DNA from: Candidatus Gottesmanbacteria bacterium
Lineage (GTDB): Bacteria; Patescibacteriota; Microgenomatia; UBA10105; UBA927
Direction of reading: 5' to 3'
Assembly (NCBI GenBank): GCA_963809665.1
Contig: CAWEKC010000001.1
Span: forward strand, 6,852 to 70,851
DNA length: 64,000 bases
Part shown: one piece after another, positions 2,090-57,576 of the stretch
Layout: every line of letters begins with the position of its first letter
How positions within the stretch are numbered: the stretch's first letter is position 1
Notes under the pieces: model-generated
The model's database searches: none
Told to the model about the DNA's origin: nothing
Seen by the model: the letters and a program-made list of their open reading frames with translations, nothing else
Made by a program: the position numbers and the translations under genes

Positions 2090-2857
2090 AACTTTCGAAA
2101 CTTCCGATACATGATCGGAAAATGCAGAGCGGACCAATAGGCAAATACGAGCCCATACCAGCCGTCGATAAACCCTTTATGCCGGACAAACAATGAAAGG
2201 AATGTTATCTTTGGTTTGATAATATTGTAGAGAATCCACGTCCATGCATTTTTAGAAATCCCGCTTTTTTTCATCTCCGAAGCTGCGAGGGTGGTGTATG
2301 AATCAGCCTTCCTCCAATAATCGTCACGTGTCCGATAGGAAATATGATCCATGGGCTCCGTAAGATACCCGGTTTTACCTGAAACCTCTATCTGCTCATG
2401 TACGCTCTTGGCGGGAAAATGAGCCTTACCGCGCCGTATAAGTCTCATAACGTAATCCGGATATTGCCCGCCTTTGCGCATCCAGTGCCCCCAAAAATAA
2501 TTCCTGCGCGGGATAAAGTACCCGTTGATATCGGAAGTACCGGATTTCATAACCGTTTGTATTTCATTGCTTAATGCCTGAGTGACCCTCTCGTCCGCAT
2601 CGAGTTGCAGAATCCAACGTCCCCGAACACGCCTCCAGTGCTTTCTGCTTATTTATGTGAAACATTACGGGGTTATCCGTCTCAATAATATGAGATGTAA
2701 ACTTGCGGGCAATTGAAACGGTCGCATCTGAGGATCCGCCGTCAACCACAACTATTTCATCCGCCAGCCGGCGGACTGAGGCAAGACATTTTTCAAGATT
2801 TTTCTCCTCATTAAATACCGCAATTGCCACTGAAAGTTTTATGTCCTTTTTCGCCAT
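2086..2857 (-). pseudogene. GT2-family glycosyltransferase (paralog of 30206-30955 and 31839-32741) with a 1-nt indel in a C4/G4 run at 2621-2624
   Basis: N-terminal part MAKKDIKLSVAIAVFNEEKNLEKCLASVRRLADEIVVVDGGSSDAT starts at ATG 2855-2857, inside ORF 2564-3085. C-terminal part is ORF 2086-2550. The conserved ..SGRWILQLDADERV.. motif is restored only if one G of the minus-strand GGGG run at 2621-2624 is removed (compare TGKWILYIDADEEV in the 30206-30955 protein). Confidence 0.65.
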
Positions 2858-4493: not shown

Positions 4494-4495
4494 TT

Positions 4496-19333: not shown

Positions 19334-19335
19334 GA

Positions 19336-39588: not shown

Positions 39589-40725
39589 TTATACCTGAGG
39601 CCGCTTTGATGGGCAAATGAGGTTTCGGACGCCTATCCAGACAAGAGAAAGAAGAATAGGTATGATTACGAACCAGAATTTCAGGATTTGCACCGGGGGA
39701 TCGTAGTTACCGGTGTATAAAAACGGTGCGTAGGTGAGAAGAAAACCCAGAGAGGCGCCTGTACCAACGATTGTAAGCCACTTCGTACGGGGAAGAAGCG
39801 CATACCACGGGATGAACCAGATGAGGTACCACGGGAGTATTTCACGTCTGGTAATAATAATAAAACCGGCAAACCCGATTGCCGTTGCCACAATCGACCA
39901 TTTCCGCTGCCAGCCTATTAAAAAGAGCGGTATGAGACTTATAGTCATTATCTTCGTCGCCGCTGAGCATGATAGAAGCACAAATGATGCAAGCCGCTTT
40001 TTGTGCAGATATACATAAAACGACGTTACTGCAAATGCCATCATGATCACGTCATAGTGGCCGCTCACAAGCGTTTCAAAAATGACTAAAGGATTCAGCG
40101 CAAACACGGCAGTTCCGTACAGTGCATGATCGGGTTCGAGATCGGAAAGTATTTTCCAGATAAACCATGCGGTTACCAGATACCCTGCAGCCATAAGTGC
40201 TTTAAAACTCCATAAAATTCCCAGAAAATAACCAAAACCAAGTAGGTATGCCGGCAGAGACAGTGTTATCCAGAACGGCATAAACGTGCTGGGTATATGC
40301 GTCCAGTGCATAAATGAAAGCCACGGTTCAACACCGCTGAATTGAAGAGGAATAACCATATACGGAATTTTGTGATATACGAGAACCGTTTTTGCATCGA
40401 ACATATAATTAAATATGTCATAGGAAAACGCGGGGTAAGAAAATATTAAAATGATTGTCACGACCAGAATGATTCTTCTTAAAACCTGAAACGTCAGCTT
40501 TGTATTTAGCGCCCAAATATAAAGAATAAAAAAAGCCGCGACTAATCCCACAAACATACCTGTCGCCACGGGCCGCTGGAAATACCCGATATATTGGAAA
40601 CTTTTTTCAATCGTTTGATAGATGCTCAGTCTTGACAGTGTGAGTGAAAGATCTACCTGTGTGTAGGAAAATAAGAAAAGTGCAATCGCCGCAAGTACAT
40701 ATCCGATAGATAATTTTTTAGCCAT
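39589..40725 (-). CDS. DUF2029/GT87-type polytopic GT-C-like membrane protein
   Basis: 378 aa, about 10 TM helices. Intact paralog of the frameshifted 404-1547 gene. Confidence 0.5.
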   Translation of the reverse strand: MAKKLSIGYVLAAIALFLFSYTQVDLSLTLSRLSIYQTIEKSFQYIGYFQRPVATGMFVGLVAAFFILYIWALNTKLTFQVLRRIILVVTIILIFSYPAFSYDIFNYMFDAKTVLVYHKIPYMVIPLQFSGVEPWLSFMHWTHIPSTFMPFWITLSLPAYLLGFGYFLGILWSFKALMAAGYLVTAWFIWKILSDLEPDHALYGTAVFALNPLVIFETLVSGHYDVIMMAFAVTSFYVYLHKKRLASFVLLSCSAATKIMTISLIPLFLIGWQRKWSIVATAIGFAGFIIITRREILPWYLIWFIPWYALLPRTKWLTIVGTGASLGFLLTYAPFLYTGNYDPPVQILKFWFVIIPILLSLVWIGVRNLICPSKRPQV

Positions 40726-41470
40726 ATAATCCCTGCCATGCGTTTATCCGGATTTTAAGAATATCCATAAGCCCCTGTACGGAATCAATAACGGGATTCA
40801 CGCGGCGGGTCTCGACATAATGCCATTCCACCGGCACTTCTTTTATCTTATACCCGAGCTTTCTGGCCAAAAACAAAACCTCAATATCAAATCCCGCCGT
40901 CACCATGGATCCGCTCACCGTATGCCGTGATCCATACAATTTAAGACGCTGAAAAATATCATGGGCTACAGACGAACGGAACGCCTTAAAACCGCACTGC
41001 GTATCCACGATACCGTGAAGTCCCAAAATGCTGCCCCGCAGCACCATAAATCCCCGTGCCATAATCCGCCGTGTAAGCGGGGCGCCCTGTCTACGGCCGC
41101 TGCGCGACCCGATCACCACATCATACCCTTTCTCAAACCACGGAAGGATATTTTTTATCTCAGTAATCGGAGTAGCCTGATCAAGATCGGTAAACAATAC
41201 GATCGCACCCCGGCTCCCGAGCATGCCGGTAATGACCGTGGATGCTTTTCCCTGATGCGGATTGTGTATGACGGAAAACCCCGGGTTCGCTTTTACAAAG
41301 GCATCCAGTAACACGCCGGTCCCGTCAGTCGAACCGTCATCCACAATAATTGCTTCCCATGTATACGTCGCCCGCTCCAGGAATCGCGATACTTTATCAA
41401 GAGCCCCCAAGCGGATATTGGTTTCTTCATTATACGCAGGAATGATCACGGATAAATCAACTTTATTCAT
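40718..41470 (-). CDS. DPM1/CsbB/GtrB-like GT2 polyprenyl-phosphate sugar synthase
   Basis: 250 aa with ..LSVIIPAYNEETNI..VDDGSTDGT..DLDQATP..QCGFKAF.. Confidence 0.7.
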   Translation of the reverse strand: MNKVDLSVIIPAYNEETNIRLGALDKVSRFLERATYTWEAIIVDDGSTDGTGVLLDAFVKANPGFSVIHNPHQGKASTVITGMLGSRGAIVLFTDLDQATPITEIKNILPWFEKGYDVVIGSRSGRRQGAPLTRRIMARGFMVLRGSILGLHGIVDTQCGFKAFRSSVAHDIFQRLKLYGSRHTVSGSMVTAGFDIEVLFLARKLGYKIKEVPVEWHYVETRRVNPVIDSVQGLMDILKIRINAWQGLYG

Positions 41471-41472
41471 TG

Positions 41473-43008
41473 TTACACACCGGTATAATGGACCAGCTTA
41501 AATATTTTAACAAACGGTACGTCCCATTCTCCGACAATCTCTGCTCTGCCAAACCCTGCTATTTCCCATAGAGGATGCCCGAGCGGCTTGCAGTCGGATA
41601 ATTCGCAAATGACAATGAGCTGATCCGTCACCGTGGTTCGTTTGGGATCCACCTGATCATTCTCTATCGTAACCGGGGCGCGGTGCGCAATCTCAAAAAA
41701 ATACCGGTAGGTGTGGTCGGAATTTGATCCGGTGATAAGGGCGAAATTAAATGGTTTACCGCCGGTATGCGCCAGCGCCGTCTGGGCAATCAGTCTCGAC
41801 TGAGCCAACTGATTATTCGGGGGATATAAAAACGGCCTGCCCTGCCAGTTAAAAAACATGAGCCATCCAAAAAAAATAAGCGCAGGTATCTTGCCGTACT
41901 TTGTCTTCCATACTGCATAGACGACAAGACCGATAAGCAGGAACGGCAGCGTAAACAGTATGCCGAAATAGTAATCATAAATTGCTTTTTGATAAAAACC
42001 AAACAGAAGGACGACTGTAGAAAACCAGATAAGCAATAATTGAGCACCGTGGTATAGCCGGGCTTTATTCGGTATCCGGTAGATTAACAGTACGATAAGA
42101 AATACATAGCTGATAAATATCGTTGTCCGCGTACCGATAAACCATGCTGTGAGCGACCAGGGCGGTAAAGATTTCCACAATGCACCGTCCGGAAGACGGT
42201 ATAAAAGTCGTCCGAATAACCGGAACACTACATCGTCAATCGTGGTAAAGAATCCCGGTGCGAAACCCGTATCATTACCGGAGGTGACAAACCGGATGAC
42301 GGATTGGGTGTTGGGGAACCCGTGACGCACCTCGAATGCCAAAAACGGCGAATATCCAATGAGAAAACCGACAACAACCCACAGTACGCTTTTGAGAAAC
42401 GGAACTGTTTTCGCGCTCACAATCAACCAGATACCCGTCACGGCAAAAAGAAAAATAAAAAGATAGTGTAGCTGCAATCCGATCCCCAGAACCACGCCTG
42501 CCCAAACAAGCATCGAGGTCCGTTTCTTTTCAACGGCGAGCCATAGTAAATGTATAAGTAGCAGTGAGAAAAACGGCACCAGATTCGGATTCCATGACGA
42601 ACGGGAATACGCGATGACGAGCGGCGAAAGCGCATACAGGCTAGCCGCAATAAGTCCTGCCGTCGGGCTGATGAATTCTTTCCCGACTTTAAACACAAGA
42701 TACACGGTTGCGATTCCGAAAAGAGCCACCATAATAGCCGGACCGACGGGATTGAGATTCCATGCCCACAAAAACGGAAGCATAAAATAATAATAAATGG
42801 GACCCAGGAAAAACCCCCCGACAGAGGCTGTGGGCCCTAGGAGCGTGAATTTATGGTTCACGATCATGTGCATGACGACGAGAACATCACGCCCTTCATC
42901 GCCCAAAAATGTCATATAACCGGAAATCTTAAACAACCGGAGGTACGCGGCGAAACCAAGAATGATAATGAGTGGGATAATAAACCAATTTTTTTTCAAG
43001 AAATTCAT
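41473..43008 (-). CDS. ArnT-like GT-C membrane glycosyltransferase
   Basis: 511 aa. Paralog of 4496-6055 (see the motif there). Confidence 0.65.
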   Translation of the reverse strand: MNFLKKNWFIIPLIIILGFAAYLRLFKISGYMTFLGDEGRDVLVVMHMIVNHKFTLLGPTASVGGFFLGPIYYYFMLPFLWAWNLNPVGPAIMVALFGIATVYLVFKVGKEFISPTAGLIAASLYALSPLVIAYSRSSWNPNLVPFFSLLLIHLLWLAVEKKRTSMLVWAGVVLGIGLQLHYLFIFLFAVTGIWLIVSAKTVPFLKSVLWVVVGFLIGYSPFLAFEVRHGFPNTQSVIRFVTSGNDTGFAPGFFTTIDDVVFRLFGRLLYRLPDGALWKSLPPWSLTAWFIGTRTTIFISYVFLIVLLIYRIPNKARLYHGAQLLLIWFSTVVLLFGFYQKAIYDYYFGILFTLPFLLIGLVVYAVWKTKYGKIPALIFFGWLMFFNWQGRPFLYPPNNQLAQSRLIAQTALAHTGGKPFNFALITGSNSDHTYRYFFEIAHRAPVTIENDQVDPKRTTVTDQLIVICELSDCKPLGHPLWEIAGFGRAEIVGEWDVPFVKIFKLVHYTGV

Positions 43009-43015
43009 TTTATTT

Positions 43016-44155
43016 TCAGCCCGAGGCTGATCCGCCTTTGGCGGACTTCCATATTACTTTTGAATAGATAACGTAATTCCAGATAAGAAGAAATCCCGTG
43101 CCCAAAAGGAAAAATTCAAAGTACCACCGGTCGCCTAGGAGTCGGACTCCCAGCCAAATACATCCGGTTTGTATGACAACGACGCCGAATGCACTCGTTG
43201 CGTAAAACTGCGCCAGCTTACCGACATATTGTCCGATACCTTCTATTTTATGATGCCGGAACGTCCACATATTATTCAAATTAAAGTTAGAAAATATGGC
43301 AACGGCCGCCCCGGCGAGATTTGCCCATGTCGCCGACCAATTCAGGTTGTGTAGTACCACTAAAATAACTGCATTAATAATAAATCCTATACCCCCCACG
43401 ACAAGAAACTTACCGAACGGACCGGTAACTATCTCCCGGAATTTTGTTACGGCGATAAATTGGAAAATATTCAAAATATACTCAGCGGGGGCGATCTTAG
43501 AATGTCCGAACCGCCTGTCGGTAAATTGTATCGGGACTTCGGTAATCTTCGCCCCGTCATGGATGGCACTGTGAAGAAACGCGATCTGAAACACGTATCC
43601 GCCGTACCCTTTCACCTTTTCTTTGTTATCCAGATAATACTTTTTTGAATAAGCACGGTACCCTCCGGTCCAATCGTGAACCCCTGTGTGCCAAAGTCCG
43701 AACCGTACGATACTATTGCCTATGACACTGTATATTTTCCGTATTAATCCCCAATTACCCGGTATTGAACCGCCACGGATATATCTGCTGCCGACGACAA
43801 AATCAGCCCCGTTGTCTATTGCATGCAAAAACTCCGGCGCGGTATCCGGATCATGGGACAAATCAGCATCCATCTGCAATAAAATTTCCGCATGTAACTG
43901 ATTAATTGCATACGTCATGCCCCGCAGGAGCGCTTTCCCTAAGCCCTCTTTTTTACCCGAAATAAGGTGCACGTTCCCGTGTGTTTGTTGGTATTTTTTT
44001 ACTAAGTCTCCCGTCCCGTCGGGTGATGTATCATCCACGACCAGGTAGGAAATTGTGTGCCGGTTGACCGCTTTCATTACCGTTTCAAGGCGGTCAAGAA
44101 GCACAATAATATTTTCTCGTTCGTTATACGTGGGAATAATAACGACAACCTTCAT
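43016..44155 (-). CDS. DPM1-like GT2 polyprenyl-phosphate sugar synthase fused to a C-terminal GtrA-like four-helix membrane domain
   Basis: 379 aa. N-terminal ..VVIIPTYNEREN..VDDTSPDGT..QMDADLSHDP..GGYRAY.. C-terminal ~120 aa with four hydrophobic helices (..FLVVGGIGFIINAVILVVL..YFATSAFGVVVIQTGCIWLGV..), the GtrA/GtcA flippase-type module. Confidence 0.65.
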   Translation of the reverse strand: MKVVVIIPTYNERENIIVLLDRLETVMKAVNRHTISYLVVDDTSPDGTGDLVKKYQQTHGNVHLISGKKEGLGKALLRGMTYAINQLHAEILLQMDADLSHDPDTAPEFLHAIDNGADFVVGSRYIRGGSIPGNWGLIRKIYSVIGNSIVRFGLWHTGVHDWTGGYRAYSKKYYLDNKEKVKGYGGYVFQIAFLHSAIHDGAKITEVPIQFTDRRFGHSKIAPAEYILNIFQFIAVTKFREIVTGPFGKFLVVGGIGFIINAVILVVLHNLNWSATWANLAGAAVAIFSNFNLNNMWTFRHHKIEGIGQYVGKLAQFYATSAFGVVVIQTGCIWLGVRLLGDRWYFEFFLLGTGFLLIWNYVIYSKVIWKSAKGGSASG

Positions 44156-44164
44156 AAGGTAGAC

Positions 44165-45125
44165 TCAAACCCGTTCGCGCCAATAGTTGAGAAGGTCCTC
44201 CATCGTTTTTTTGAATGGGATTTCCGGCTTCCAGCCGGTTTTTGCCACAAACTTGCTGTTATCACCTAAGAGCACTGGTACATCTGAAGGACGCATGCGG
44301 GCTTGATCCGGCTCAATCTTTCACTTTAGTTTTCGAAAATGACAGGAGAATATTCAGCATATCACCGATTTTTATCGTCGTGCCGCTGCAAATATTGTAT
44401 ACATCGCCGGGATCACATTTTTCCACTGCAACCAAATACCCTTTTACCATGTCCCGGACGTCCGTATAATCGCGGCTGGCATCCAAATTTCCCACATGTA
44501 TGACCGGATCCTGTTTCCCTTTTTCGATCAGGGCGATTTGCTTGGCAAAATTTGATTCGGCAAACGTATCGCCACGTCTCGGCCCCGTGTGGTTAAACCC
44601 GCGGGTCCGGATGATACGGATCTTATATGACTGAAAATACTGGTATCCCAAATAATCCATTGCAAGCTTTGATACCGCATAGGGTGAAAGCGGACGCAAA
44701 GGATTTGTCTCCTTGATAGGCAATTCATCGGGATGGACCAGCCCATATTCCTCACTGGAGCAGGCTATCTGGATAACCGGATCGATGCCGACCTGACGGA
44801 CTGCTTCAAAAAGGTTAGCTGATCCCACGATATTCGCCTCAAGCGTAACGGACGGCGATACCCATGAGGTCGGAACAAATGACTGCGCGGCAAGATGAAA
44901 AATATAATCCGGTTTAATGCGTGAAATTGTCGAATACAGGCTATGGGTATCCAGAATATCCGCGTCCTCCAGATGAAGCTTGTTGACAATGGAATCGATA
45001 TAATCTGTCTTACTGCGCGACCGTTTGAGTCCGTATACTTCGTATCCGCCGCCGAGAAGCAAATCCGCTAAATGGCTTCCGACAAACCCCGCAATACCCG
45101 TAATAAATACTTTTTTTGCTTCCAT
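44165..45125 (-). pseudogene. Gmd/Rmd-like NAD-dependent GDP-deoxyhexose dehydratase/reductase with a 1-nt insertion near 44316-44325
   Basis: ORF 44313-45125 has ..GIAGFVGSHL..YGLKRSRS..NHTGPRRGDTF..GNLDASRDYTDVRD.. After its premature stop, the +1 frame reads ..KIEPDQARMRPSDVPVLLGDNSKFVAKTGWKPEIPFKKTMEDLLNYWRERV*. This matches the Rmd C-terminus (..DPARMRR..TGWKPEITIKQSL..DWESRV). Confidence 0.65.
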
Positions 45126-45143
45126 ATTCCTCCTTTAATAGTA

Positions 45144-46442
45144 TCACATTCTCCCCACGCCGTAATACATGAAACCGAGCGACTTTACTTTTGCCGGTTC
45201 ATAAATATTGCGGCCGTCAAACAATACGAGCGTCTTCATACTGCGGGCCAGTCTCACCAGGTCTACTTGCTGAAATTCATTCCATTCGGTGATAACCGCA
45301 ACTGCATCTGCCCCGTGGGCTGCGGTATATGCATCCCTCGCAAACGTAACGGATGCGGGCAACAACTTTTTCGCATTGCCGATTGCCTCGGGATCATATG
45401 CAACCACTGTTGCTCCATGACGTACGAGTTGATTGATAATGAATATGGACGGCGCTTCCCTCATATCATCCGTATTGGGCTTAAAAGCAAGCCCGAGTAC
45501 TGCAATATGTTTACCACGGAGATTATTTTTAAAATGATGAACTATTTTCTCAACAAAACTCTCGGCGGTTTTTCTGTTTATCTCATCAACTGCTTTAAGG
45601 AGTGAAAAATCATACCCATATTGCTTTGCGATCGCAATAAGCGCCTTTACATCTTTCGGAAAACAGCTTCCTCCGTATCCCACCCCGGCAAACAGAAAAC
45701 TCCTCCCTAAACGTTTATCCAAGCCCACCGCCTCCAGCACATATTCTGCGTCTGCTCCCACCTTTTCCGAAAGCATGGCAATGGCATTGGCAAAAGAAAT
45801 CTTAGTGGACAGAAGTGAATTAGACGCGTATTTAATTAATTCCGCAGTTTCCAGGTTACACAGGACGGTTTTACCGCTTATGGGTTTATGGAGTTCAAGC
45901 AGTAATTCCCGTGCCCTGTCTGATGTTGTCCCGACAACGAGACGGTCAGGGTGCAAGGTATCATCGATAGCGGATCCTTCGCGTAAGAATTCAGGAACGG
46001 ACGCTATTGCAAATGACGATCCCTGCGGTTTATATGCTGTGAGAATCTCGCCGACTTTTTTGTTCGTACCCGGAGGAACGGTGCTTTTGGTCACGACTAC
46101 TTTGTATCCTACGAGTGACTTGGCGACGCTTTCGGCGGCAGTGAAGACGCTCGACAGATCCGCCTCACCGGTAGCTTTAGGCGGAGTCCCTACACAAATA
46201 AAGATGATTTCGGCAGGGACGACTGCTTCTTTGTAATCCAATGTAAATTTCAGCCGTCCGGCATCAACGTTCCGTTTCACCAGTTCCGCAAGCCCCGGCT
46301 CAAAAAATGGCGTGATACCCTTTTTTAAATTTTCGATTTTTTCACGCGTCCGGCCGACTACCCACACAGTGTTCCCGAGATCTGCAAACACCGACGCAGT
46401 AACCAGTCCCACATATCCATGTCCGATAAATGCAATAGTCAT
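45144..46442 (-). CDS. ugd: UDP-glucose 6-dehydrogenase (nucleotide-sugar dehydrogenase family)
   Basis: 432 aa. N-terminal Rossmann IAFIGHGYVGL and catalytic ..GVGYGGSCFPKDV.. Confidence 0.8.
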   Translation of the reverse strand: MTIAFIGHGYVGLVTASVFADLGNTVWVVGRTREKIENLKKGITPFFEPGLAELVKRNVDAGRLKFTLDYKEAVVPAEIIFICVGTPPKATGEADLSSVFTAAESVAKSLVGYKVVVTKSTVPPGTNKKVGEILTAYKPQGSSFAIASVPEFLREGSAIDDTLHPDRLVVGTTSDRARELLLELHKPISGKTVLCNLETAELIKYASNSLLSTKISFANAIAMLSEKVGADAEYVLEAVGLDKRLGRSFLFAGVGYGGSCFPKDVKALIAIAKQYGYDFSLLKAVDEINRKTAESFVEKIVHHFKNNLRGKHIAVLGLAFKPNTDDMREAPSIFIINQLVRHGATVVAYDPEAIGNAKKLLPASVTFARDAYTAAHGADAVAVITEWNEFQQVDLVRLARSMKTLVLFDGRNIYEPAKVKSLGFMYYGVGRM

Positions 46443-46448
46443 AAAGAG

Positions 46449-47303
46449 TTATTGTACCACAAATTCCTGCTTTTTAACCTCCGCTATTCCTTCCCTGAAC
46501 GAATGCATCACAACACCCAATGCTTTAATCTTATCATTCCTCAGCGCGGCGTACTGCGGGGCTGGCGCGCGGTTTGCAAACATTTCGGCAAACGTCGACT
46601 TCTCAACTAATCCCGTGTTGTACTCGAATATTTCTGCAATGATAGAAGCGGCTTCATAGGGGGTGAGGGGGCTGCCGACCACATGATACATACCGCTGGC
46701 TCCTACTTTCACCAAAACGCGGAGTGCCGCTGCTATGTCGTCAATGAATGTCGGCGCAAATATCTGATCGGTGGGCGCGCTAACTATCTCACCGGCCTGC
46801 ATCCGTTCAATCATTTTATGAACAAAATCCTTTTTACCGACCGGATGGGCACGGTATGGATTCGAGATTCGGATAACTAATCCTCCTATCGCAAGTACCC
46901 GCTTTGCTCCTTCTGTCTTCGTTTTGGCATACCATCCTAAAGGATTAGGTGTATCTTCTTCCGTATACGATTTATTCTTCCCATCAAACGCATAATCGGT
47001 ATCAATATACAAAAGTCGTTTATTAAGTTTTTTACAGATATCAGCAATATGCTGGGTCGCTTCGACGTTTACTTTCCAGGCTATATCTTTCTCGGTTCTT
47101 TCTGCTCCCTGGACATCCGTGTACGCCGCCATATGAAATACCCATGGAGCGTCGGTCTTTTCAAGACGCGCCGTCACACTTTTGACGTCAGTAATATCAA
47201 CGCCGGTGTCCGGACTTAAATTCTCAAAGGTGAATTCGGGGGCCAGCATCTGCGTCACACGGGAACCAACCAATCCCGATAATCCGGTTCCCAGAATATT
47301 CAT
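46449..47303 (-). CDS. rmlD: dTDP-4-dehydrorhamnose reductase
   Basis: ORF 46449-47366, with start at the internal ATG at 47301-47303 (MNILGTGLSGLVGSRV) giving an ATGA overlap with rmlB. Conserved ..YIDTDYAFDG..PLGWYAKTK.. Confidence 0.7.
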   Translation of the reverse strand: MNILGTGLSGLVGSRVTQMLAPEFTFENLSPDTGVDITDVKSVTARLEKTDAPWVFHMAAYTDVQGAERTEKDIAWKVNVEATQHIADICKKLNKRLLYIDTDYAFDGKNKSYTEEDTPNPLGWYAKTKTEGAKRVLAIGGLVIRISNPYRAHPVGKKDFVHKMIERMQAGEIVSAPTDQIFAPTFIDDIAAALRVLVKVGASGMYHVVGSPLTPYEAASIIAEIFEYNTGLVEKSTFAEMFANRAPAPQYAALRNDKIKALGVVMHSFREGIAEVKKQEFVVQ

Positions 47304-48316
47304 GAGGATACTCCGTACTGTTTTTTGTAATATTCCTGATATGCTCCGCTTTTCACCCGCTTCCACCAGGATTCATGTGTTTTGTACCATTCGATTGTTT
47401 TTCCAAGCCATTCTTCAAACTCATGGAGGGGTTTCCACCCTAACCCGTTATTAATTTTAGACCAGTCGATGGCGTAGCGACGATCATGCCCGGGACGGTC
47501 TTTAACAAACTCAATAGAGGACTCATCCTTTCCCATTATGTGCAGAATGAGACGTACGACCTCAAGATTACTGATATCTTTCGTCGATCCACCGACGCAA
47601 TATGTTTCTCCTACTTTCCCCGTCAGGAGTACCGCTTCGATTGCGCGGCAATGGTCTTCAACATAGAGCCAATCCCGTACGTTTTTGCCGTCGCCGTAGA
47701 TTGGTACTTTTTTCCCTTCGAGGATGTTAGTAATCGCCAAAGGGATGAACTTTTCCGGAAAATGAAAGGGGCCGAAATTATTTGAACAATTTGTTATGGT
47801 GATCGGCAGACCGAATGTATGATAGTAGGCGCGTACTAAATGATCCGATCCGGCTTTACTGGCGGAGTAGGGACTTCTGGGGTCATATGGTGTTCGTTCA
47901 CTAAATTTACCCGGATCTTCAAGTGCCAGTGATCCGAATACTTCGTCCGTTGATACATGATGAAACCGTTTCACTTTCACCGTATGGGCCGCATCCAACA
48001 ATACCTGGGTACCCGTGACATTGGTTTTTACAAACGGGGCCGGGTCACGTATGGAGCGGTCCACATGGCTTTCGGCAGCGAAATGGACAACCGTGTCAAC
48101 GCCTTCCATGGCCGCATTCACGGTTGCGGGGTCACAGATGTCACCGTAAACGAATTTGTAACGGGGATTTTTCTCGACGTCCACTAAATTTTCAAGATTT
48201 CCCGCATAGGTAAGTTTATCGAGATTGATGATTGAATCGTCCGGATGATTTGCCATCCAGAAAATAATAAAGTTGGACCCGATAAAACCTGCTCCTCCAG
48301 TGACTAGCAATTTCAT
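47300..48316 (-). CDS. rmlB: dTDP-glucose 4,6-dehydratase
   Basis: 338 aa with MKLLVTGGAGFIGSNF..HVSTDEVFG..YSASKAGSDHLVRAY.. Confidence 0.85.
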   Translation of the reverse strand: MKLLVTGGAGFIGSNFIIFWMANHPDDSIINLDKLTYAGNLENLVDVEKNPRYKFVYGDICDPATVNAAMEGVDTVVHFAAESHVDRSIRDPAPFVKTNVTGTQVLLDAAHTVKVKRFHHVSTDEVFGSLALEDPGKFSERTPYDPRSPYSASKAGSDHLVRAYYHTFGLPITITNCSNNFGPFHFPEKFIPLAITNILEGKKVPIYGDGKNVRDWLYVEDHCRAIEAVLLTGKVGETYCVGGSTKDISNLEVVRLILHIMGKDESSIEFVKDRPGHDRRYAIDWSKINNGLGWKPLHEFEEWLGKTIEWYKTHESWWKRVKSGAYQEYYKKQYGVSS

Positions 48317-48340
48317 AAAAATATTAAAATTAACTTTTGT

Positions 48341-48814
48341 TTACGTTATTTTTTTATTCGTGATTGGTTTACCCTGCACCCAGTCATATCCGATATCGGG
48401 ATCGTTATACTCAACGCGCCCTTCTTCTGCTGTGTCATAAATTCGGCTGGTTGCATAGACAAAATGACACGGGCCTTCCAATACTTTCATGCCGTGCGCA
48501 ACACCCGACGGTACTTTTACGATGATATTGTCCGGCTCATTTCCCAGAATAAACTCATTCAGTTGCCTATGGGTCGGTGAATCTTTCCGGAGATCATACA
48601 GAACCATTTTGATTTTCCCTGTTGCACAAAACCACCAGTCAGTCTGCGTTTTGTGTACATGCCATGCCTTGACTACTCCCTCTGCCATAAACGTATGCGA
48701 CAATTGTCCGAATCCTTCAGAAAAAAACTCATCAGTCGAGCGGATAAGCTCTTCAAAATAGCCCCGTTCATCGGGATGGCGGACCAGTTTTTTTATCATT
48801 ACTCCGGCAATCAT
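48341..48814 (-). CDS. rmlC: dTDP-4-dehydrorhamnose 3,5-epimerase (cupin fold)
   Basis: 157 aa with ..RHPDERGYFEEL..KAWHVHKTQTDWWFCATGKIKMVLYDLR.. Confidence 0.75.
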   Translation of the reverse strand: MIAGVMIKKLVRHPDERGYFEELIRSTDEFFSEGFGQLSHTFMAEGVVKAWHVHKTQTDWWFCATGKIKMVLYDLRKDSPTHRQLNEFILGNEPDNIIVKVPSGVAHGMKVLEGPCHFVYATSRIYDTAEEGRVEYNDPDIGYDWVQGKPITNKKIT

Positions 48815-49548
48815 AATTTTCCTTCTTTAACGAACCGTGCAACTTCTGTATTGGCACGCAATAACTCATCGAACGACGTACCTGCATCGATCCACCAGTC
48901 AATAATGCCGCACATGAGTTTGCCGTCTTTAAGATAGAGGTTATTCAGATCCGTTACTTCAAGTTCACCGCGCCCCGATGGTTTTAATTTCCGTATATAG
49001 TCAAATACCTTTCCGTCATAGATATACACGCCGATCTGCGCGATATCCGATTTGGGATGCTCAGGCTTTTCCTCTATAGAGAGAACTGTACCGTCTTTAT
49101 CCATTTCGATGACGCCGTACTGGCTCGATGTGGTATCAAGGTGAACGCCGAATGTCATGGCGCCTTTTCCTGACACCTCAAACCGCCCGACGGATTTTTT
49201 AAGATCAAAATTGAAGATATTATCGCCTAAAATGACGAGAATCGGCCCGTGGTCCGCAAATTTTTCGGCCAGCGCGACCGCCTGGGCAATCCCGCCTTTC
49301 GGGTCTTTCTGCACGGCATAATATACATGAAGCCCGAATTCCTCACCGGCGTTCAGTAAATTGGCAAAATGACCCGCGTGGTCCGGCGCTGAGGTGAGTA
49401 GCACCTCTGTAATTCCCGCCCGTGCCATAGCCTCCAGCGGGTAATAAATCATCGGTTTGTTATAAATAGGCAAAAGATGTTTATTGGTGACTAAGGTCAG
49501 CGGACGTAAACGGGTTGCAAGTCCACCGGCCAGTATAACGCCTTTCAT
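48811..49548 (-). CDS. rmlA: Glucose-1-phosphate thymidylyltransferase (short form)
   Basis: ORF 48811-49608, with start at MKGVILAGGLATRLRPLT..NKHLLPIYNKPMIYYPL. Aligns along its length with RmlA. Confidence 0.8.
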   Translation of the reverse strand: MKGVILAGGLATRLRPLTLVTNKHLLPIYNKPMIYYPLEAMARAGITEVLLTSAPDHAGHFANLLNAGEEFGLHVYYAVQKDPKGGIAQAVALAEKFADHGPILVILGDNIFNFDLKKSVGRFEVSGKGAMTFGVHLDTTSSQYGVIEMDKDGTVLSIEEKPEHPKSDIAQIGVYIYDGKVFDYIRKLKPSGRGELEVTDLNNLYLKDGKLMCGIIDWWIDAGTSFDELLRANTEVARFVKEGKL

Positions 49549-49570
49549 AGAGCGTGCTCCTTTCGAAGAG

Positions 49571-49819
49571 CTAAAATCCGAGCATTGTAACCAATAATAC
49601 GATTGCAATGGCCCCTATCAAGAGATATTCTACCACAATCTTCTGATGCAGATCCCGGTTGATAACGTGATGGATAAGCCCCCACAGGACGTATACCACC
49701 GCGGTCACTATTCCGACATACAGCTGGAGAGTCGCGTTCGGTGTCACATACATAAACGCGATAACGCCTGCAGCCAGTACGGCAATTAATACGAGAAGGT
49801 GGCTGACGGATCGTTTCAT
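49571..49819 (-). CDS. Small hypothetical membrane protein (2-3 TM helices)
   Basis: 82-aa hydrophobic ORF with an ATGA overlap with the upstream CAP-domain gene. Confidence 0.4.
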   Translation of the reverse strand: MKRSVSHLLVLIAVLAAGVIAFMYVTPNATLQLYVGIVTAVVYVLWGLIHHVINRDLHQKIVVEYLLIGAIAIVLLVTMLGF

Positions 49820-50748
49820 AAGAGTCTCCCGCGGGAAACACCGGATATGAGAATAAACAACGCACTCAAAAATAATATATGGGCTATATTATGTCCGGCG
49901 ATCCGTACGACCCGCCGGCGGCTGGAAATCCATGCATCAACAAGCAGTACTCCCATAAGAATGCCCACGAATGCGAATACTACATCGCGCGACGCCGTCG
50001 GGATATTAATAAGCGGCGAAGTATTTACGCTCTCAAATCCGCTGACTGCCGGCAGCTGTACCGGATTTGCAGAAGGGGCAGGAACATTCGCTTCTGCAGC
50101 TTCCTGCGGCACCTCAACCTGCCTCACCGGCAGGCTGGCCGGTTGGGCGGGGGGTGCAGGCGCGGCGGCTGCAAGTTCAGCAGGAGTGGTACCGAACATC
50201 TGAACCACAAGTGTTGTTTCTTCGCCGTTTAGCGTTCCGTTGACGACGGCAAACCCCACATCGCGATAGCCGGCCTTGAGTACATTATCGCGGTGTGATG
50301 GTGAAGCCATCCACGCATCAACAACACCCTGGCTGGTAGAGAAGTTTTTAGCCAGATTTTCCCCGGCTACCGTGTACTTGTATCCGGCACCGGTTATAAA
50401 ATCCCACGGTGTTGAGCCTGTCGGACTGTTATGCGCCCAATAATTTTTAGTAAACATATCCGCCGCCTTATTAGCTGCAGCCACGGAAAGCGTACTATTA
50501 ATCGTTACCGGAGAAAGTCCGGCCTCAGCCCGTTTGGCGTTTGTGTCGGTCAGGAGTTGCTGCACGTTAATATCCGTGGCATAGCCCAAAACTCCCGGTG
50601 CAACTTTATGGGCTGCACGGATTCCCAGATTAAAAAGGGCAAACAGAAGCACATACACCAATAGTGAATCTACGTGCAGTGCTTTAGCACGATGGTTATT
50701 CGTATGCTGTGGAATGAAAAAATGCAGCAGATAGTTAATCCGAGCCAT
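49816..50748 (-). CDS. CAP/SCP/PR1-like domain protein (YkwD-type) with an N-terminal signal anchor, a Pro/Ala-rich linker and a C-terminal TM segment
   Basis: 310 aa with ..YWAHNSPTGSTPWDF..GENLAKN..ASPSHRDNVL..VGFAVV.., the CAP-family signature. Confidence 0.55.
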   Translation of the reverse strand: MARINYLLHFFIPQHTNNHRAKALHVDSLLVYVLLFALFNLGIRAAHKVAPGVLGYATDINVQQLLTDTNAKRAEAGLSPVTINSTLSVAAANKAADMFTKNYWAHNSPTGSTPWDFITGAGYKYTVAGENLAKNFSTSQGVVDAWMASPSHRDNVLKAGYRDVGFAVVNGTLNGEETTLVVQMFGTTPAELAAAAPAPPAQPASLPVRQVEVPQEAAEANVPAPSANPVQLPAVSGFESVNTSPLINIPTASRDVVFAFVGILMGVLLVDAWISSRRRVVRIAGHNIAHILFLSALFILISGVSRGRLL

Positions 50749-53201: not shown

Positions 53202-53217
53202 TGTACGATGTCGTACA
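53202..53217 (-). terminator. Weak intrinsic terminator candidate after the coiled-coil hydrolase gene
   Basis: Hairpin tgtacg-atgt-cgtaca (6-bp stem). On the minus-strand transcript it is followed by a U-rich tract; plus strand 53187-53199 is aaaaaagaaaaat. It sits 15 nt past the stop at 53232. Confidence 0.3.
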
Positions 53218-53231
53218 AACTGCAGGGTTTT

Positions 53232-54437
53232 TTACATAGATATCCGGTCAATCTCATAAATGCTGTTGATCGGATAATGATCCGTAAACGAAATTTTGTG
53301 CCCGTCGGGAACAAAGGGATCATTCATCGTATAACTGCCGTTGGAACCGCTTACAAGTACGACAAAATGCGTGTCTCCGTTGGAATATCTTATTCCCACT
53401 ATAACAGGACGTCCTGAGCTCAATTCACCGTCAATTTCGGAGGCTATTCTGGTTGAAGTTGTGCCGTCGGCAACAATGGTCCGGTTTAAAAAGGCGGGAT
53501 AATATGATGCGAAATTTGACGGGTTCGCGTTGATAGTCAGCGGGGTTACGCTTTTGTGCCCGAAATGGGTGTATACCATGGCCATGGAAGTCACAAGACA
53601 CCCGTCCGAGGCTATACTGTACTGTGTATTATTGAGTGCTGCAGCCCCCCACTGGCTGTCTCTCTGGTTATAATAACACCCCCAGTCATCACAAACAGTC
53701 TGGTTTGATAGAATGCTGGCCCCTCCCTGATTGGACGCGAAGCTTGAAAATCCGGCAAGCTGCGCTTTGGCAGCCGCAAGAAGCTGCTGATAAATAGCTT
53801 CCTGACCCTGTGTTTCGGCCAGTAGCGTATTCTTTGCCTGCTTTTGTTGTGCCAGTTGCTTATTCTGTATTTCCAGCTGCGCCTGCACCTGCTCAAGTTG
53901 TTTCGATTTATCTTCCCGTATCTGTTTGCTGTCGTTGTAACTGTTTTGCGTTGACTTCACCTGAAATACAAGCGCGGCGTCTTCCTGCTGAACCGCCTGG
54001 ATGTATTTTACCCGGTTAATCAGATCCGATACATTACGGCTGAAAAGAAGTATGCCGAATTGCGGTGCAACGGACCGTTTATACGCCTCGGGAATTCGGT
54101 GAAGGAGGAGCGGCAGCCGTACGTTCAAAACATCTTCAAGACGTTTCACCTCATTCTCCAGTTTCGTAATTTCATCAAGCAGCGTATTAATCTTCGTCTG
54201 TGTCGCCTCAATCCGGATCGTCGTCAGCTTGATCTGGTTATCCATATAGCTGATCTCTCCGGAGAGTGTATTTTCCTGATTTTTGCAGGAAGTGACCAGA
54301 TTGCTGTAACAATCCGCTCGTTTTGAAAGATCGCTTTCGCCCGCACACGGGTCGCCTTCGCATGATTGGGCAAAAATCCTAAGAGGAAATAGGAAGAAAA
54401 GTGCAATAAATATCCCAATCCATATTCGTTTGTTCAT
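53232..54437 (-). CDS. Secreted coiled-coil protein with a C-terminal C39-like/papain-fold cysteine peptidase domain (PcsB/CwlO/RipC-like putative FtsEX-controlled cell-wall hydrolase)
   Basis: 401 aa. Signal peptide MNKRIWIGIFIALFFLFPLRIFAQS. About 170 aa of heptad-rich Q/E/K/L sequence. C-terminal ..CDDWGCYYNQRDSQWG..SDGCLVTSMAMVYTHFG..VIVGIRYSNGDTHFVVL.. with the Cys and His placed as in C39-like peptidases. Immediately downstream of ftsE and ftsX. Confidence 0.55.
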   Translation of the reverse strand: MNKRIWIGIFIALFFLFPLRIFAQSCEGDPCAGESDLSKRADCYSNLVTSCKNQENTLSGEISYMDNQIKLTTIRIEATQTKINTLLDEITKLENEVKRLEDVLNVRLPLLLHRIPEAYKRSVAPQFGILLFSRNVSDLINRVKYIQAVQQEDAALVFQVKSTQNSYNDSKQIREDKSKQLEQVQAQLEIQNKQLAQQKQAKNTLLAETQGQEAIYQQLLAAAKAQLAGFSSFASNQGGASILSNQTVCDDWGCYYNQRDSQWGAAALNNTQYSIASDGCLVTSMAMVYTHFGHKSVTPLTINANPSNFASYYPAFLNRTIVADGTTSTRIASEIDGELSSGRPVIVGIRYSNGDTHFVVLVSGSNGSYTMNDPFVPDGHKISFTDHYPINSIYEIDRISM

Positions 54438-54444
54438 GCATGCG

Positions 54445-55357
54445 TCAGAACTTTAAATATCGCCCGAGGGCAATAAGACTTCCTACACTTCCCAGGAAAA
54501 ATCCGATAAGAAGCATTGCCCCCAAAAATCCGCCTACCGCCAGCAGAAAGGGCGCAGCTGTGATGCTCCCCATAACAACGCCGATGGCGGGAATCATGCC
54601 CAGGAATGACAGTGCGGCCGGCCGGATCCAGATGACCAGCCCGGTAATAATCATCCACGCCATGAATGCGCCCGATGCCCCGTAAAACCCGCCCTCCATA
54701 ATAAACGGCATGCGGATATACCAGGGGCTCGCACCGACCAGTTTGAGGATCTCGATTTCTTCTTTTTTAAGCGCTATTTTCATGCTTACGACCGTCATGA
54801 TGATAAGAAGCGAATCAATCGCCAAAAGGATTGCCAGCGACCCGCCTACAATACGTATGGCATTCGTCCAGGAAAGAAGCGTATCCACCACATCTTTCTG
54901 GAAAACCACCTCTTCTACTCCCTGCGCCTTCCGGATAATAGGATCAAGCTCGTTTAAAAATGCCGGATCTTTGGCGGATACTTCCAGCGATGCGGGAAGA
55001 ATATCTGCCGTTACCATCTCCAAGCAGTAACGGATCGCTCTTATTCTGCTCGCGGTAAATCGCCAGGGCATCCTCTTTGGAAACGTATTTCATTGAAGAT
55101 ACTTTTCCTGTTGCGTCCAGTGTCTTTTCCAAAGTTTTAGAGTCATCTAGTGTTGCCTTGTCAGTGAAAAATACCGTAATCTGCGGCTTGCTTTCAAAAA
55201 ACTGCAGAACGAGAACCGAGGAAACGGTCGCAAGGAAAAATAATCCTCCCAGAAGAAATGTCAGGAACATCGTGAGAATCGCCGCCATTGCCTGATACGG
55301 GCTGCGCCTGACATGAGTCCAGGTACTAGGAATGAGTCGCATGTTTCTCCTTTGCAT
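54445..55357 (-). pseudogene. ftsX: Cell-division ABC transporter permease FtsX, reading frame broken by a 1-nt insertion at a GG near 55040-55045 (probably a consensus error)
   Basis: ORF 54944-55357 is the N-terminal TM1 plus periplasmic domain, ending ..KSDPLLLGDGNG.. ORF 54445-55071 carries the rest, including TM2-4. Reading ctt-gag-atg instead of ctt-gga-gat-g joins them as ..NKSDPLLLEMVTADILPASLEV.. Confidence 0.65.
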
Positions 55358-56039
55358 GTTTCACGGGATACTTGCCGTGAGCTTCATCATTGACGAGTTT
55401 TCCCGCGGTCAGGGTAATCGTACGCTTTTTAAAATTATTCACGATATTTGCGTTGTGGGTCGCCATAACTATCGTGGTGCCGATTTTATTAATTTCGTTT
55501 AATATATCTAAAACTTCCCAGGAAGTTTCCGGGTCCAGATTCCCCGTGGGTTCATCTGCCAGCAGTATGGACGGTCCGCCGACTATTGCGCGGGCAATAC
55601 CCGTCCGCTGCATTTCACCGGCAGCCAGCTGCAACGGGAATGAATTTTTTTTACCGGCAAGCCCCACAAGCTCCAGCACATCCAATACCCGTGTTTGAAT
55701 TTCTTTATCGGATTTCCCCAGTATCTCGAGGCCCAGGGCAACGTTTTCAAACACCGTCCGGTCAGTGAGGAGTTTAAAATCCTGGAACACCGTCCCGACT
55801 TTACGGCGCAGCAGATGAATTTTAGGAGCGGGAAGCGTATTGACATGCCAGTTATCTATATGAATGTTTCCGGTCGTGGGCAGTAAATCCCGGATAAGAA
55901 GCCGGAGCATCGTGGTTTTGCCGGCACCTGACGGCCCGATAAGAAAGACAAACTCACCGTCAGGAATTTCTACGGTAACATCGGACAACGCATGCACGTG
56001 CCCGGGATATTGTTTCGTAACATGGTCGAATCGAATCAT
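55326..56039 (-). CDS. ftsE: Cell-division ABC transporter ATP-binding protein FtsE
   Basis: 237 aa with Walker A GPSGAGKTT, signature LAAGEMQRTGIARAI and Walker B ILLADEPTGNLD. Confidence 0.8.
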   Translation of the reverse strand: MIRFDHVTKQYPGHVHALSDVTVEIPDGEFVFLIGPSGAGKTTMLRLLIRDLLPTTGNIHIDNWHVNTLPAPKIHLLRRKVGTVFQDFKLLTDRTVFENVALGLEILGKSDKEIQTRVLDVLELVGLAGKKNSFPLQLAAGEMQRTGIARAIVGGPSILLADEPTGNLDPETSWEVLDILNEINKIGTTIVMATHNANIVNNFKKRTITLTAGKLVNDEAHGKYPVKHAKEKHATHS

Positions 56040-56045
56040 TGCTGC

Positions 56046-56531
56046 TTACTGAAGTTCTATTCTCCCGACATCCATGAGCCATGCGGCTTTTTGGGCTGCC
56101 ATCGTCTGTCCGAATACTTTTACTTTTTTACCGACGTATTGGTCAAGGTCTACGACAGAAGATAGAAGAGTAACTGTTTGGGACGGACCGCCGTCGCGGA
56201 CAAGACTGTGTGTGCCTTCCCCGTCGGTGCCGCCTTTCTGGATAACGCCCACAGCGGTATCTTTAAACGTCGTCGTATCGCTGCTTCCGGAGACTTTATC
56301 TGCAGCAACATTAGCCGGTAATCCGCCTGTACCGGTAACCGTAGCACGTGATAACAGATATCCGGTGCCGATACCCAAAAGTGCCAGAAGCACATACACA
56401 CCGATAATCATGCGTGAAGAGCGAGTTTTCATTACTGTATCTCCTTTTTTTACCGGATCAATGGGTTCCACAATCGGCGCATCTTCAGTATCTGCCGCCG
56501 GTGCATTTTTCATTTTCTCCTGAGTCTTCAT
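56046..56531 (-). CDS. Hypothetical membrane-anchored protein
   Basis: 161 aa with a charged N-terminus, one TM (IIGVYVLLALLGIGTGYLL) and a Gly/Thr-rich extracytoplasmic tail. Confidence 0.4.
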   Translation of the reverse strand: MKTQEKMKNAPAADTEDAPIVEPIDPVKKGDTVMKTRSSRMIIGVYVLLALLGIGTGYLLSRATVTGTGGLPANVAADKVSGSSDTTTFKDTAVGVIQKGGTDGEGTHSLVRDGGPSQTVTLLSSVVDLDQYVGKKVKVFGQTMAAQKAAWLMDVGRIELQ

Positions 56532-56565
56532 ACGATTTGACTCCCTGTGACCTCATTATCAATGG

Positions 56566-57576
56566 TTACGATATTTTTTTCAAGTACGCGATGATAAAAT
56601 CGTCAAGATCTCCGTCCAGTACGCGATCGGTGTTACTGGTTTCAACCCCTGTCCGTAAATCTTTCACCATATGGTACGGGTGAAGTACATAGGAACGGAT
56701 CTGGTTCCCCCATCCCGGTGTCTTATAAACACCGCGAATATTTTTCTCTTCCGAAAGGCGCTTCGCCTGTTCTTTTTCCCATAATTTAGCACGGAGTACT
56801 TTCAGGGCATATTCGCGGTTTTGGCCCTGATACCGCTGCGCCTGGCTCGTAACGATGATACCCGTCGGCTTATGCAACAGGCGGACGGCAGTGGACACCT
56901 TATTGACGTTCTGGCCGCCCTTGCCGCCGCTCCGGTAAAAATCCCACACCAGATCATCATCTTTAATATTCACCGCGGCATTATCCTCAAGAACCGGAAG
57001 TACCTCCGTCATGGCAAATGAGGTCTGACGCAGTTTATCCGCATTAAACGGTGACTGGCGAACCAACCGGTGCACCCCGGCTTCAGCTTTTAAAAATCCG
57101 TAGGCATACGCTCCGCTAACCGTTACCGTAACGCTTTTAATTCCTGCCTCATCACCGGGCGTGTAATCGATTTCTTCGGAAGACCAGCCTTTCCGCTCAA
57201 TATAGCGCGTATACATGCGATAAAGCATGCTTGTCCAATCCATGGCCTCGGTGCCTCCCTGACCCGAATGGATGGCAAAAATCGCATCTCCGCGGTCGTA
57301 CGGGCCCGACAAATACAGGGCAAATTCCATCCTGTCAAGCTCGCGCGAGAGATCTTTTTCGTTCCCTTCAGTAATATACAGCGCGAGCATTTCCCCTTCC
57401 TCTATCTCCTTTTGGAGTGCCGCCATTTCTTTCATCTTTTTCGTTGCTGTCTGATTATCTTTCCAGAAGTCAGGGTGGCTGCTGAGCGCTTCAATCTCTC
57501 TGACGGCCTTACGTTTCCCGTCCAAATCGAGTTTAGTAATAAGTTCGCGGGCACGGGTAGTTAATGATTCATCCAT
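56566..57576 (-). CDS. prfB: Peptide chain release factor 2, encoded in a single frame (no programmed +1 frameshift)
   Basis: 336 aa with the SPF tripeptide (..[11 protein letters not shown]..) and GGQ motif (..[27 protein letters not shown]..). The N-terminus aligns with pre- and post-shift E. coli RF2 sequence with no frame change. Confidence 0.85.

Follow-up and report, generated by a model that had tools for sequence, protein, structure and literature searches.

A C39-like cysteine peptidase domain on an EnvC/PcsB-type coiled coil, encoded beside ftsEX in Candidatus Gottesmanbacteria: a putative FtsEX-controlled peptidoglycan hydrolase

We analysed a stretch of 64,000 nucleotides (nt) from a Candidatus Gottesmanbacteria bacterium (assembly GCA_963809665.1, contig CAWEKC010000001.1, positions 6,852 to 70,851 of the forward strand), referred to here as the window, and found that the gene following ftsE and ftsX encodes a protein of 401 amino acids (aa) in which a long N-terminal coiled coil of the EnvC/PcsB type is joined to a C-terminal C39-like cysteine peptidase domain with an invariant Cys-His-Asp triad. 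FtsEX with its coiled-coil partner is the best-understood 'mechanotransmission' ATP-binding cassette (ABC) system controlling cell-wall cleavage. We propose, with a probability of about 0.68, that the 401-aa protein serves FtsEX as its extracytoplasmic effector in the Microgenomates, which belong to the Candidate Phyla Radiation (CPR; Patescibacteria), and that it is an active peptidoglycan peptidase activated by FtsEX. The gene, the parts of its product and the predicted catalytic codons are listed below in window positions.

54437..53232, minus strand, stop codon included: 401-aa secreted coiled-coil C39-like peptidase, putative FtsEX-controlled peptidoglycan hydrolase
54369..54437, minus strand: signal peptide, residues 1-23, MNKRIWIGIFIALFFLFPLRIFA followed by QS, predicted cleavage between RIFA and QS (by inspection)
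53730..54332, minus strand: coiled-coil region, residues about 36-236 (AlphaFold2 (AF2) helices, EnvC profile match, fold matches, CC_PcsB)
53235..53720, minus strand: C39-like papain-fold cysteine peptidase domain, residues 240-401 (PF13529, domain model, PDB fold matches)
53598..53600, minus strand: Cys280 codon, predicted nucleophile (invariant in 44 sequences; coordinates checked)
53367..53369, minus strand: His357 codon, predicted catalytic base (invariant in 44 sequences)
53319..53321, minus strand: Asp373 codon, predicted third triad member, in the MNDP motif (invariant in 44 sequences)

The coiled coil and the C39-like domain

The signal peptide was read from the sequence; its n-region, MNKR, leads into a hydrophobic core that is followed by an A-x-A-like site. 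The possibility of a lipoprotein was considered and rejected, since the family consensus lacks a conserved cysteine past the cleavage site, making a lipobox unlikely. An AF2 model of the whole protein, based on 44 aligned homologues that share 50-82% identity with it, reached a mean predicted local distance difference test (pLDDT) score of 87.9. In this model, helices spanning residues 58-122 and 136-209 form an antiparallel hairpin, a third helix covers residues 213-236, and residues 240-401 fold into a compact alpha/beta domain.

We compared the family profile with all PDB sequences, and the top match was E. coli EnvC as present in the FtsEX-EnvC complex (8hd0_E, E=7e-9). The alignment covered positions 31-231 on both sides and was almost gapless over its ~200 residues; generic coiled coils aligned with the profile over only ~70 residues. 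Further matches included EnvC (6tpi), the V. cholerae and P. aeruginosa structures 8tzk_E and 8i6o_E, and PcsB (4cgk). A Foldseek search with the full model placed V. cholerae FtsE/FtsX/EnvC (8tzl_E), PcsB (4cgk) and M. tuberculosis FtsEX/RipC (8idc_E) as the top three, and the Pfam family CC_PcsB matched all 44 relatives (best E=7e-8) and, weakly, the window protein. The N-terminal part is therefore what characterises the FtsEX-coupled class, a secreted antiparallel hairpin of ~200 residues homologous to those of EnvC and PcsB. The protein is not an equivalog of either, scoring 20.8 bits against a cut-off of 450 with the PcsB model NF046104 (coiled-coil residues 45-220 only) and 19.9 bits against a cut-off of 270 with the EnvC model NF008644 (via the coiled coil only). 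Residues 114-160 of EnvC touch both extracellular domains of FtsX (2024 review, PMC11627006), and the corresponding tip of the hairpin (~114-160) in the window protein carries a near-invariant cluster of R114, I115, Y119, S133, Y145, Q150 and D153. By analogy, this tip would bind the extracellular domains of FtsX.

The C-terminal domain was assigned from profiles and from its fold. Peptidase_C39_2 (PF13529) matched residues 255-374 of the window protein with 29.6 bits, the gathering score being 24, and matched 44 of the 44 relatives (best E=4e-9). The canonical family Peptidase_C39 (PF03412) matched 14 of the 44 relatives weakly and gave no match in the window protein at E<=0.1. Canonical C39 domains are N-terminal in ABC exporters and cut double-glycine leaders; the domain studied here is C-terminal in a secreted coiled-coil protein and has no transporter fusion, and was not assigned to that family. 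No Pfam match to CHAP (PF05257), NLPC_P60 (PF00877) or M23 was found in the window protein at E<=0.1, and none of these was among the 25 families matched by most of the 44 relatives.

Since a phmmer search of the domain against PDB sequences gave nothing meaningful, its closest structures are known from the fold search. A model of the domain alone (pLDDT 93.8, predicted template modelling score 0.90) was searched against the PDB with Foldseek and showed an alpha/beta fold of the papain type. The best match was 3ERV, a putative C39-like peptidase of B. anthracis (E=1.3e-3, probability 1.00), with a template modelling (TM) score of only 0.39, followed by the pseudomurein endoisopeptidase PeiR (8z4h, E=4.4e-3), AvrRpt2 (family C70) and many C39 domains of PCAT1 and ComA. 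Structures of the CHAP type (Gsp amidase, trypanothione synthetase) appeared only at ranks 43-49 with probabilities of 0.18-0.35, and NlpC/P60 structures were absent from the top 50. We therefore rejected CHAP, NlpC/P60 and M23/LytM as identities of the domain, on both profiles and fold ranks.

The predicted nucleophile Cys280 lies within the motif DGCLVTSMAMVYTHFG (DGCLVTSMAMV), His357 within THFVVL and Asp373 within MNDP. All three residues are invariant in the 44 homologues, as is Gln258, and so are the motif neighbours G279, F358 and P374. A pair of cysteines, Cys249 and Cys254 (CDDWGC), is near-invariant and would fit an extracytoplasmic protein. Mean identity across the relatives was 71% for the C-terminal domain compared with 48% for the coiled coil, as expected for an enzyme domain carried on a structural handle. 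This conservation bears on the idea that the protein is a non-catalytic adaptor, in which the C39-like domain only binds and activates another hydrolase such as an amidase. EnvC provides the precedent, being an FtsEX partner whose degenerate enzyme domain serves as an activator; it has lost its metal ligands (PMC11627006), whereas here the triad and its neighbours are invariant down to 50% identity, and we consider an adaptor role very improbable.

A sequence-only reading of this locus had proposed the long N-terminal coiled coil, a place in the FtsEX-partner paradigm, and a C39-like catalytic domain rather than CHAP, NlpC/P60 or M23, quoting the cysteine motif with downstream His and Asp residues. 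The helices of the model and the EnvC, PcsB and RipC matches bear out the first two, the profile counts and the fold ranks the third, and the quoted residues proved to be the invariant triad. The fold search on residues ~240-401 that it had suggested is the one that placed 3ERV first.

Gene order and distribution of the family

Relatives were collected in a scan that took one genome per species. They were found in 324 genomes, 80 of which were fetched; these represent Gottesman-, Roizman-, Levy- and Woesebacteria and other metagenome-assembled genomes of the Microgenomates group, the closest relatives with a named phylum being Candidatus Gottesmanbacteria. Synteny was assessed in the 64 loci whose upstream flank reached 2.2 kb or more. 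In 58 of them the hydrolase gene came straight after ftsE and ftsX on the same strand, at a distance of 7-703 nt, and in two more an insert of 1.5-1.8 kb separated it from ftsX. The association extended to distant members of the family. P0250, which is 34% identical, follows ftsX directly (locus L081), and P0266 (E=4e-18) follows ftsE-ftsX in another neighbourhood and precedes a CtpB-like S41 peptidase (L085, L086). The linkage is therefore old and reaches beyond local synteny.

Given these counts, we think it highly unlikely that the adjacency is merely positional, that is, that the protein is a secreted hydrolase independent of FtsEX whose coiled coil serves for oligomerisation or as a spacer. 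The gene does lie away from ftsEX in four of the 64 loci, and the pneumococcal PcsB gene is not beside ftsEX either, so that adjacency and partnership are separable. Against this stand the synteny in 58-60 of the 64 loci, the distant members in otherwise different neighbourhoods, and a coiled coil that matches EnvC, PcsB and RipC specifically and over its full length.

A search of the protein database returned 1731 homologues at E<=0.001. The best 120 of these were 229-439 aa long, most of them ~400 aa; where named, they came from Patescibacteria and Roizmanbacteria and were labelled 'peptidoglycan hydrolase CwlO-like protein' (by the Joint Genome Institute, JGI), 'C39 family peptidase' or 'hypothetical'. 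When a profile of the C-terminal domain was run against 1.84 billion cluster representatives, 4238 proteins matched at E<=1e-3 and 590 at E<=1e-10. The best 150 matches were mostly proteins of ~400 aa with the domain at the C-terminus. The matches also included giant proteins of 2903-5477 aa (P0238, P0242, P0267, P0268 and P0269) with two to four C39-like domain matches each (E=1e-18 to 1e-22). A recent phage origin of the domain was considered and found to be unsupported, a tblastn search against phage genomes yielding one weak match (31.5% identity, E=1e-4) in an unannotated 4.5-kb record. In L085, the order at 2216-6678 is ftsE, ftsX, the coiled-coil C39-like protein and then the CtpB-like S41 peptidase with PDZ domains, which recalls the ftsEX-ctpB neighbourhood of other bacteria.

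Proposed function and comparison with known systems

Several lines of evidence link the protein to the cell wall. All known coiled-coil partners of FtsEX act on peptidoglycan, either directly or through amidases (PMC11627006). One relative of 448 aa, P0241, has two LysM modules in place of the coiled coil, together with the same C39-like domain (E=2e-21), and this independent fusion points to a tie between the domain type and peptidoglycan. The best viral structural neighbours of the domain were a tail tape-measure protein, a multidomain cyanophage 'lysozyme' of 1123 aa and phage 'peptidases'. C39-like is also a predicted lytic domain of mycobacteriophage LysA (N5, which matches 3ERV) and of phage lysins for Gram-positive hosts (PMC3314691, PMC8223927). 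Because the FtsEX partners, the LysM fusion, the PeiR match, the viral neighbours and the phage lysin domains are all linked to the cell wall, we infer that peptidoglycan is the substrate.

The fold matches also admit a different substrate. The protein could be coupled to FtsEX and yet be a true protease, cleaving an envelope protein or a pilin or maturing a leader of the double-glycine type. Of its structural neighbours, PCAT1 and ComA process leader peptides and AvrRpt2 is an effector that cleaves protein; the Cys-to-His spacing of 77 residues is close to the 79 of ComA, whose catalytic pair is Cys17/His96 (PMC10630487); and a paper on Microgenomates genomes took a secreted C39 peptidase in this sense, with no link to FtsEX noted (PMC7143001). 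Such a role is improbable in our view, since it would set the protein apart from every known FtsEX coiled-coil partner, leaves the LysM fusion and the PeiR and phage lytic-protein matches pointing elsewhere, and finds no ABC exporter fusion of the kind that true C39 domains have.

If the protein is an FtsEX-activated peptidoglycan peptidase, it would be exported via its Sec signal peptide, and the tip of the hairpin (~114-160) would be held between the extracellular domains of an FtsX dimer. Through FtsX, the binding and hydrolysis of ATP by FtsE would act on the coiled coil, and the C-terminal domain would be released or reoriented from an autoinhibited state, possibly with the involvement of helix 213-236. 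Cys280, His357 and Asp373 would then cut peptidoglycan at the septum, through one of its peptide or amide bonds, which would let the daughter cells separate. In this scheme the binding to FtsX, the ATP-dependent activation, the autoinhibition, the substrate and the bond cut are all drawn from analogy with the characterised FtsEX systems.

Several observations weigh against the proposed function. The fold matches of the C-terminal domain were modest (Foldseek E=1e-3 to 3e-2, TM scores of 0.39-0.52 and identity of about 15%), and the domain is therefore a divergent member of its group; the window protein clears the PF13529 cut-off by a margin of only ~5 bits. The hydrolase gene is away from ftsEX in the four loci mentioned above, one of which (L013) was inspected, and the ftsX gene of the window is frameshifted, so that the module may be broken in this genome or assembly. 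In addition, characterised C39 peptidases cut peptide leaders, not peptidoglycan, and we know of no PF13529 member with a biochemically defined specificity for a peptidoglycan bond.

Among the known systems, PcsB of S. pneumoniae, an FtsEX-activated CHAP enzyme, is very similar in plan. Both are secreted, ~400 aa long, start with a signal peptide, continue in a long coiled coil and end in a cysteine hydrolase domain of the papain fold with Cys and His in its triad; the likeness extends to the CC_PcsB matches in all relatives and to 4cgk as the second-ranked whole-model fold match. The window protein differs in having a C39-like domain (PF13529) instead of CHAP, an Asp as third triad residue where PcsB has Glu (PMC11627006), and a gene placed directly after ftsX. 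EnvC of E. coli, V. cholerae and P. aeruginosa gave the best profile match for the coiled coil (8hd0_E) and the best fold match (8tzl_E), and shares the two long antiparallel helices and a following helix comparable to its restraining arm. At its C-terminus, EnvC has a degenerate LytM/M23 domain that is itself inactive and serves to activate amidases, unlike the papain-fold domain with an intact triad seen here. RipC of M. tuberculosis and CwlO of B. subtilis are FtsEX-activated NlpC/P60 endopeptidases that likewise combine a coiled coil with a C-terminal cysteine peptidase; FtsEX/RipC (8idc_E) was among the top fold matches and the JGI labels relatives 'CwlO-like', but the window protein lacks an NlpC/P60 match in both the Pfam search and the top 50 domain folds.

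The likeness to the C39-like family PF13529 lies in the score above gathering, in 3ERV as the best solved match and in the Cys/His/Asp triad, although identity to 3ERV is only about 16%. To our knowledge, no characterised member of PF13529 is coupled to FtsEX or fused to a coiled coil of the EnvC/PcsB type. ComA and PCAT1 share the papain-like fold and, presumably, ComA also has its Asp 16 residues past the His, as in the window protein. Their domains are cytoplasmic, N-terminal in ABC exporters and cut double-glycine leaders, whereas the window domain is secreted and C-terminal to a coiled coil. PeiR, PeiW and PeiP (family C71) resemble the domain as cysteine peptidases that cut a cell-wall peptide cross-link, with 8z4h as the second-best domain match, but these archaeal and viral enzymes act on pseudomurein, show 16% identity and a TM score of about 0.4, and have neither a coiled coil nor a link to FtsEX.

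The FtsEX partner domains given in the 2024 review are LytM, CHAP and NlpC/P60 only (PMC11627006), and a 2019 review of the domains of bacterial cell-wall hydrolases mentions neither C39 nor PF13529 (PMC6403190). A full-text literature search that included PF27870 and Patescibacteria/CPR as terms returned no paper that ties FtsEX to a C39-like domain or describes this architecture, in agreement with the sequence-only reading, which had called the pairing previously unremarked. Automatic annotation does hold the two halves separately, as 'CwlO-like' and as 'C39 family peptidase'. The Pfam accession PF27870.1, newer than the release we scanned, is precomputed on the exact 401-aa protein, and curators may thus already have a family covering part of it. 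Judged from these sequence comparisons, the C39-like domain is a fourth catalytic-domain type for the FtsEX coiled-coil module, one that is widespread in Microgenomates. The 'catalytic-domain swap' that had been suggested holds as far as the C39-like domain is concerned; however, the cysteine peptidases of the C39-like, CHAP and NlpC/P60 groups all share the papain fold, and the swap is therefore one between cousins within a fold class. For the same reason the advance is incremental rather than conceptual.

A fourth domain type, dominant in a major uncultured lineage, would demonstrate the portability of the coiled-coil handle as a regulatory module. It would also give the large PF13529 family, whose members have so far been read as bacteriocin-leader peptidases, a concrete role at the cell wall, and it points to a likely cell-separation enzyme of the Microgenomates, whose cell biology is almost unknown. 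A wider claim is that the FtsEX effector is C39-like across the Microgenomates and probably in further CPR lineages, a catalytic type absent from inventories of bacterial cell-wall hydrolases, maybe with a bond specificity novel relative to CHAP, NlpC/P60 and M23, and that the module comprises four genes with the 161-aa protein encoded upstream of ftsE as an obligatory accessory factor like SweCD or SteAB. We put this forward as a tentative extension that is more doubtful than the reading of the 401-aa protein itself.

The ftsX insertion and neighbouring genes

The remaining features of the locus are listed below. From 57.6 down to 53.2 kb every gene is on the minus strand, the order being prfB, 161-aa open reading frame (ORF), ftsE, ftsX and 401-aa ORF.

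57576..56566, minus strand: prfB
56583..56555, minus strand: promoter-like site just upstream of the 161-aa gene, TTGAAA, 17 nt spacer, GATAAT (consensus scan, 10/12 positions, weak)
56531..56046, minus strand: 161-aa ORF, membrane-anchored, family unassigned
56039..55326, minus strand: ftsE, ABC ATPase of the FtsEX complex, 237 aa (TIGR02673, ABC_tran)
55357..54445, minus strand: ftsX, permease-like subunit with extracellular domain, +1 frameshift in the window (FtsX_ECD, FtsX permease, NCBIfam)
55021..55025, minus strand: single-nucleotide insertion splitting ftsX, within the region coding for the extracellular domain (blastn against L004, L001 and L005)
53217..53202, minus strand: terminator-like hairpin with a T-run after it, 15 nt past the hydrolase stop (consensus scan, weak)

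The reading frames of ftsE and ftsX overlap, and the hydrolase gene starts 7 nt past the stop of ftsX. FtsE scored 280.2 bits with TIGR02673 against a cut-off of 264.85 and matched ABC_tran with E=1.5e-30, and its Walker A motif (GPSGAGKTT) is present. The two parts of FtsX were identified separately, the N-terminal ORF by FtsX_ECD (E=3e-9) and the C-terminal ORF by the FtsX permease family (E=2e-7) and FtsX models of NCBIfam (E=1e-32). The order ftsE-ftsX-hydrolase on the minus strand was thus found where the sequence-only reading had placed it; its coordinates and description were correct, and what it had overlooked is that an extra base splits ftsX.

This 1-nt insertion divides ftsX into two ORFs, 55357..54944 and 55071..54445. 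Alignments by blastn against L004, L001 and L005 each showed one gap at about 55021-55025, where the window reads CTGCTTGGAGATGG and the relatives read CTT-TTGGAAATGG or CTTCTT-GAGATGG. Since the gene is in frame in all three relatives, a conserved programmed frameshift was ruled out; the extra base stems either from an error in the assembly or from pseudogenisation that happened very recently. On repair, FtsX is 303 aa long and 90% identical to the product of the intact gene in L004.

If the insertion is real, FtsX would be truncated inside its extracellular domain, leaving the module defunct in this genome and the hydrolase uncoupled or silent. This would concern the present sequence alone and not the family. 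The absence of the extra base from the three relatives and its position outside any long homopolymer are compatible with a genuine lesion, as is the situation in a Gottesmanbacteria relative (L007, 926-1663), where the ftsX alignment is broken in two and ~185 nt of that same region of the extracellular domain are apparently absent; the latter is either a second damaged ftsX extracellular domain in the clade or a misassembly. On the other hand, the neighbouring genes including the hydrolase are all intact, the halves of ftsX show no other decay and remain 90% identical to L004, FtsEX is strongly conserved in the lineage, and metagenome assemblies commonly hold single-base indels. We consider a defunct module unlikely, though not to a degree that would make it negligible.

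The ABC signature of FtsE, at about 55590-55604 on the minus strand, reads LAAGE in place of LSGGE. Among the relatives (loci L001-L080), LSGGE was found in 50 loci, LSAGE in 14 and LAAGE in L005, and the distribution therefore indicates a degenerate FtsE signature in a Gottesmanbacteria-like clade. As judged from the motif, this could alter the ATPase activity of FtsE.

The 161-aa gene lies directly upstream of ftsE in 60 of the 60 related loci with enough flank. Its product has one transmembrane segment, MIIGVYVLLALLGIGTGYLL, read by inspection. No significant match to Pfam or NCBIfam was found for this protein, the sole Pfam match (DUF4431, E=0.032) falling below the cut-off, and its 775 homologues carry no Pfam domain and, where named, are labelled 'hypothetical'. 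Within the FtsEX module it could act as an accessory factor specific to this lineage, like SweCD and SteAB, and its conservation flags it as a possible new FtsEX cofactor. The promoter-like site in front of this gene was scored by consensus and is a weak candidate.

An Rfam scan of the whole window gave no match. At 49816-50748 on the minus strand lies a gene for a 310-aa membrane-anchored protein that combines an Ala/Pro-rich linker with a domain of the CAP (cysteine-rich secretory protein) type. The region 39589-49608, also on the minus strand, holds a nucleotide-sugar and glycosyltransferase cluster with RmlA/B/D-like enzymes, a UDP-glucose dehydrogenase, GT2, GT87 and PMT_2, which likely serves the synthesis of cell-envelope polysaccharide. 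The GC content was 0.387 at 18001-20000 compared with about 0.45 in the rest of the window.

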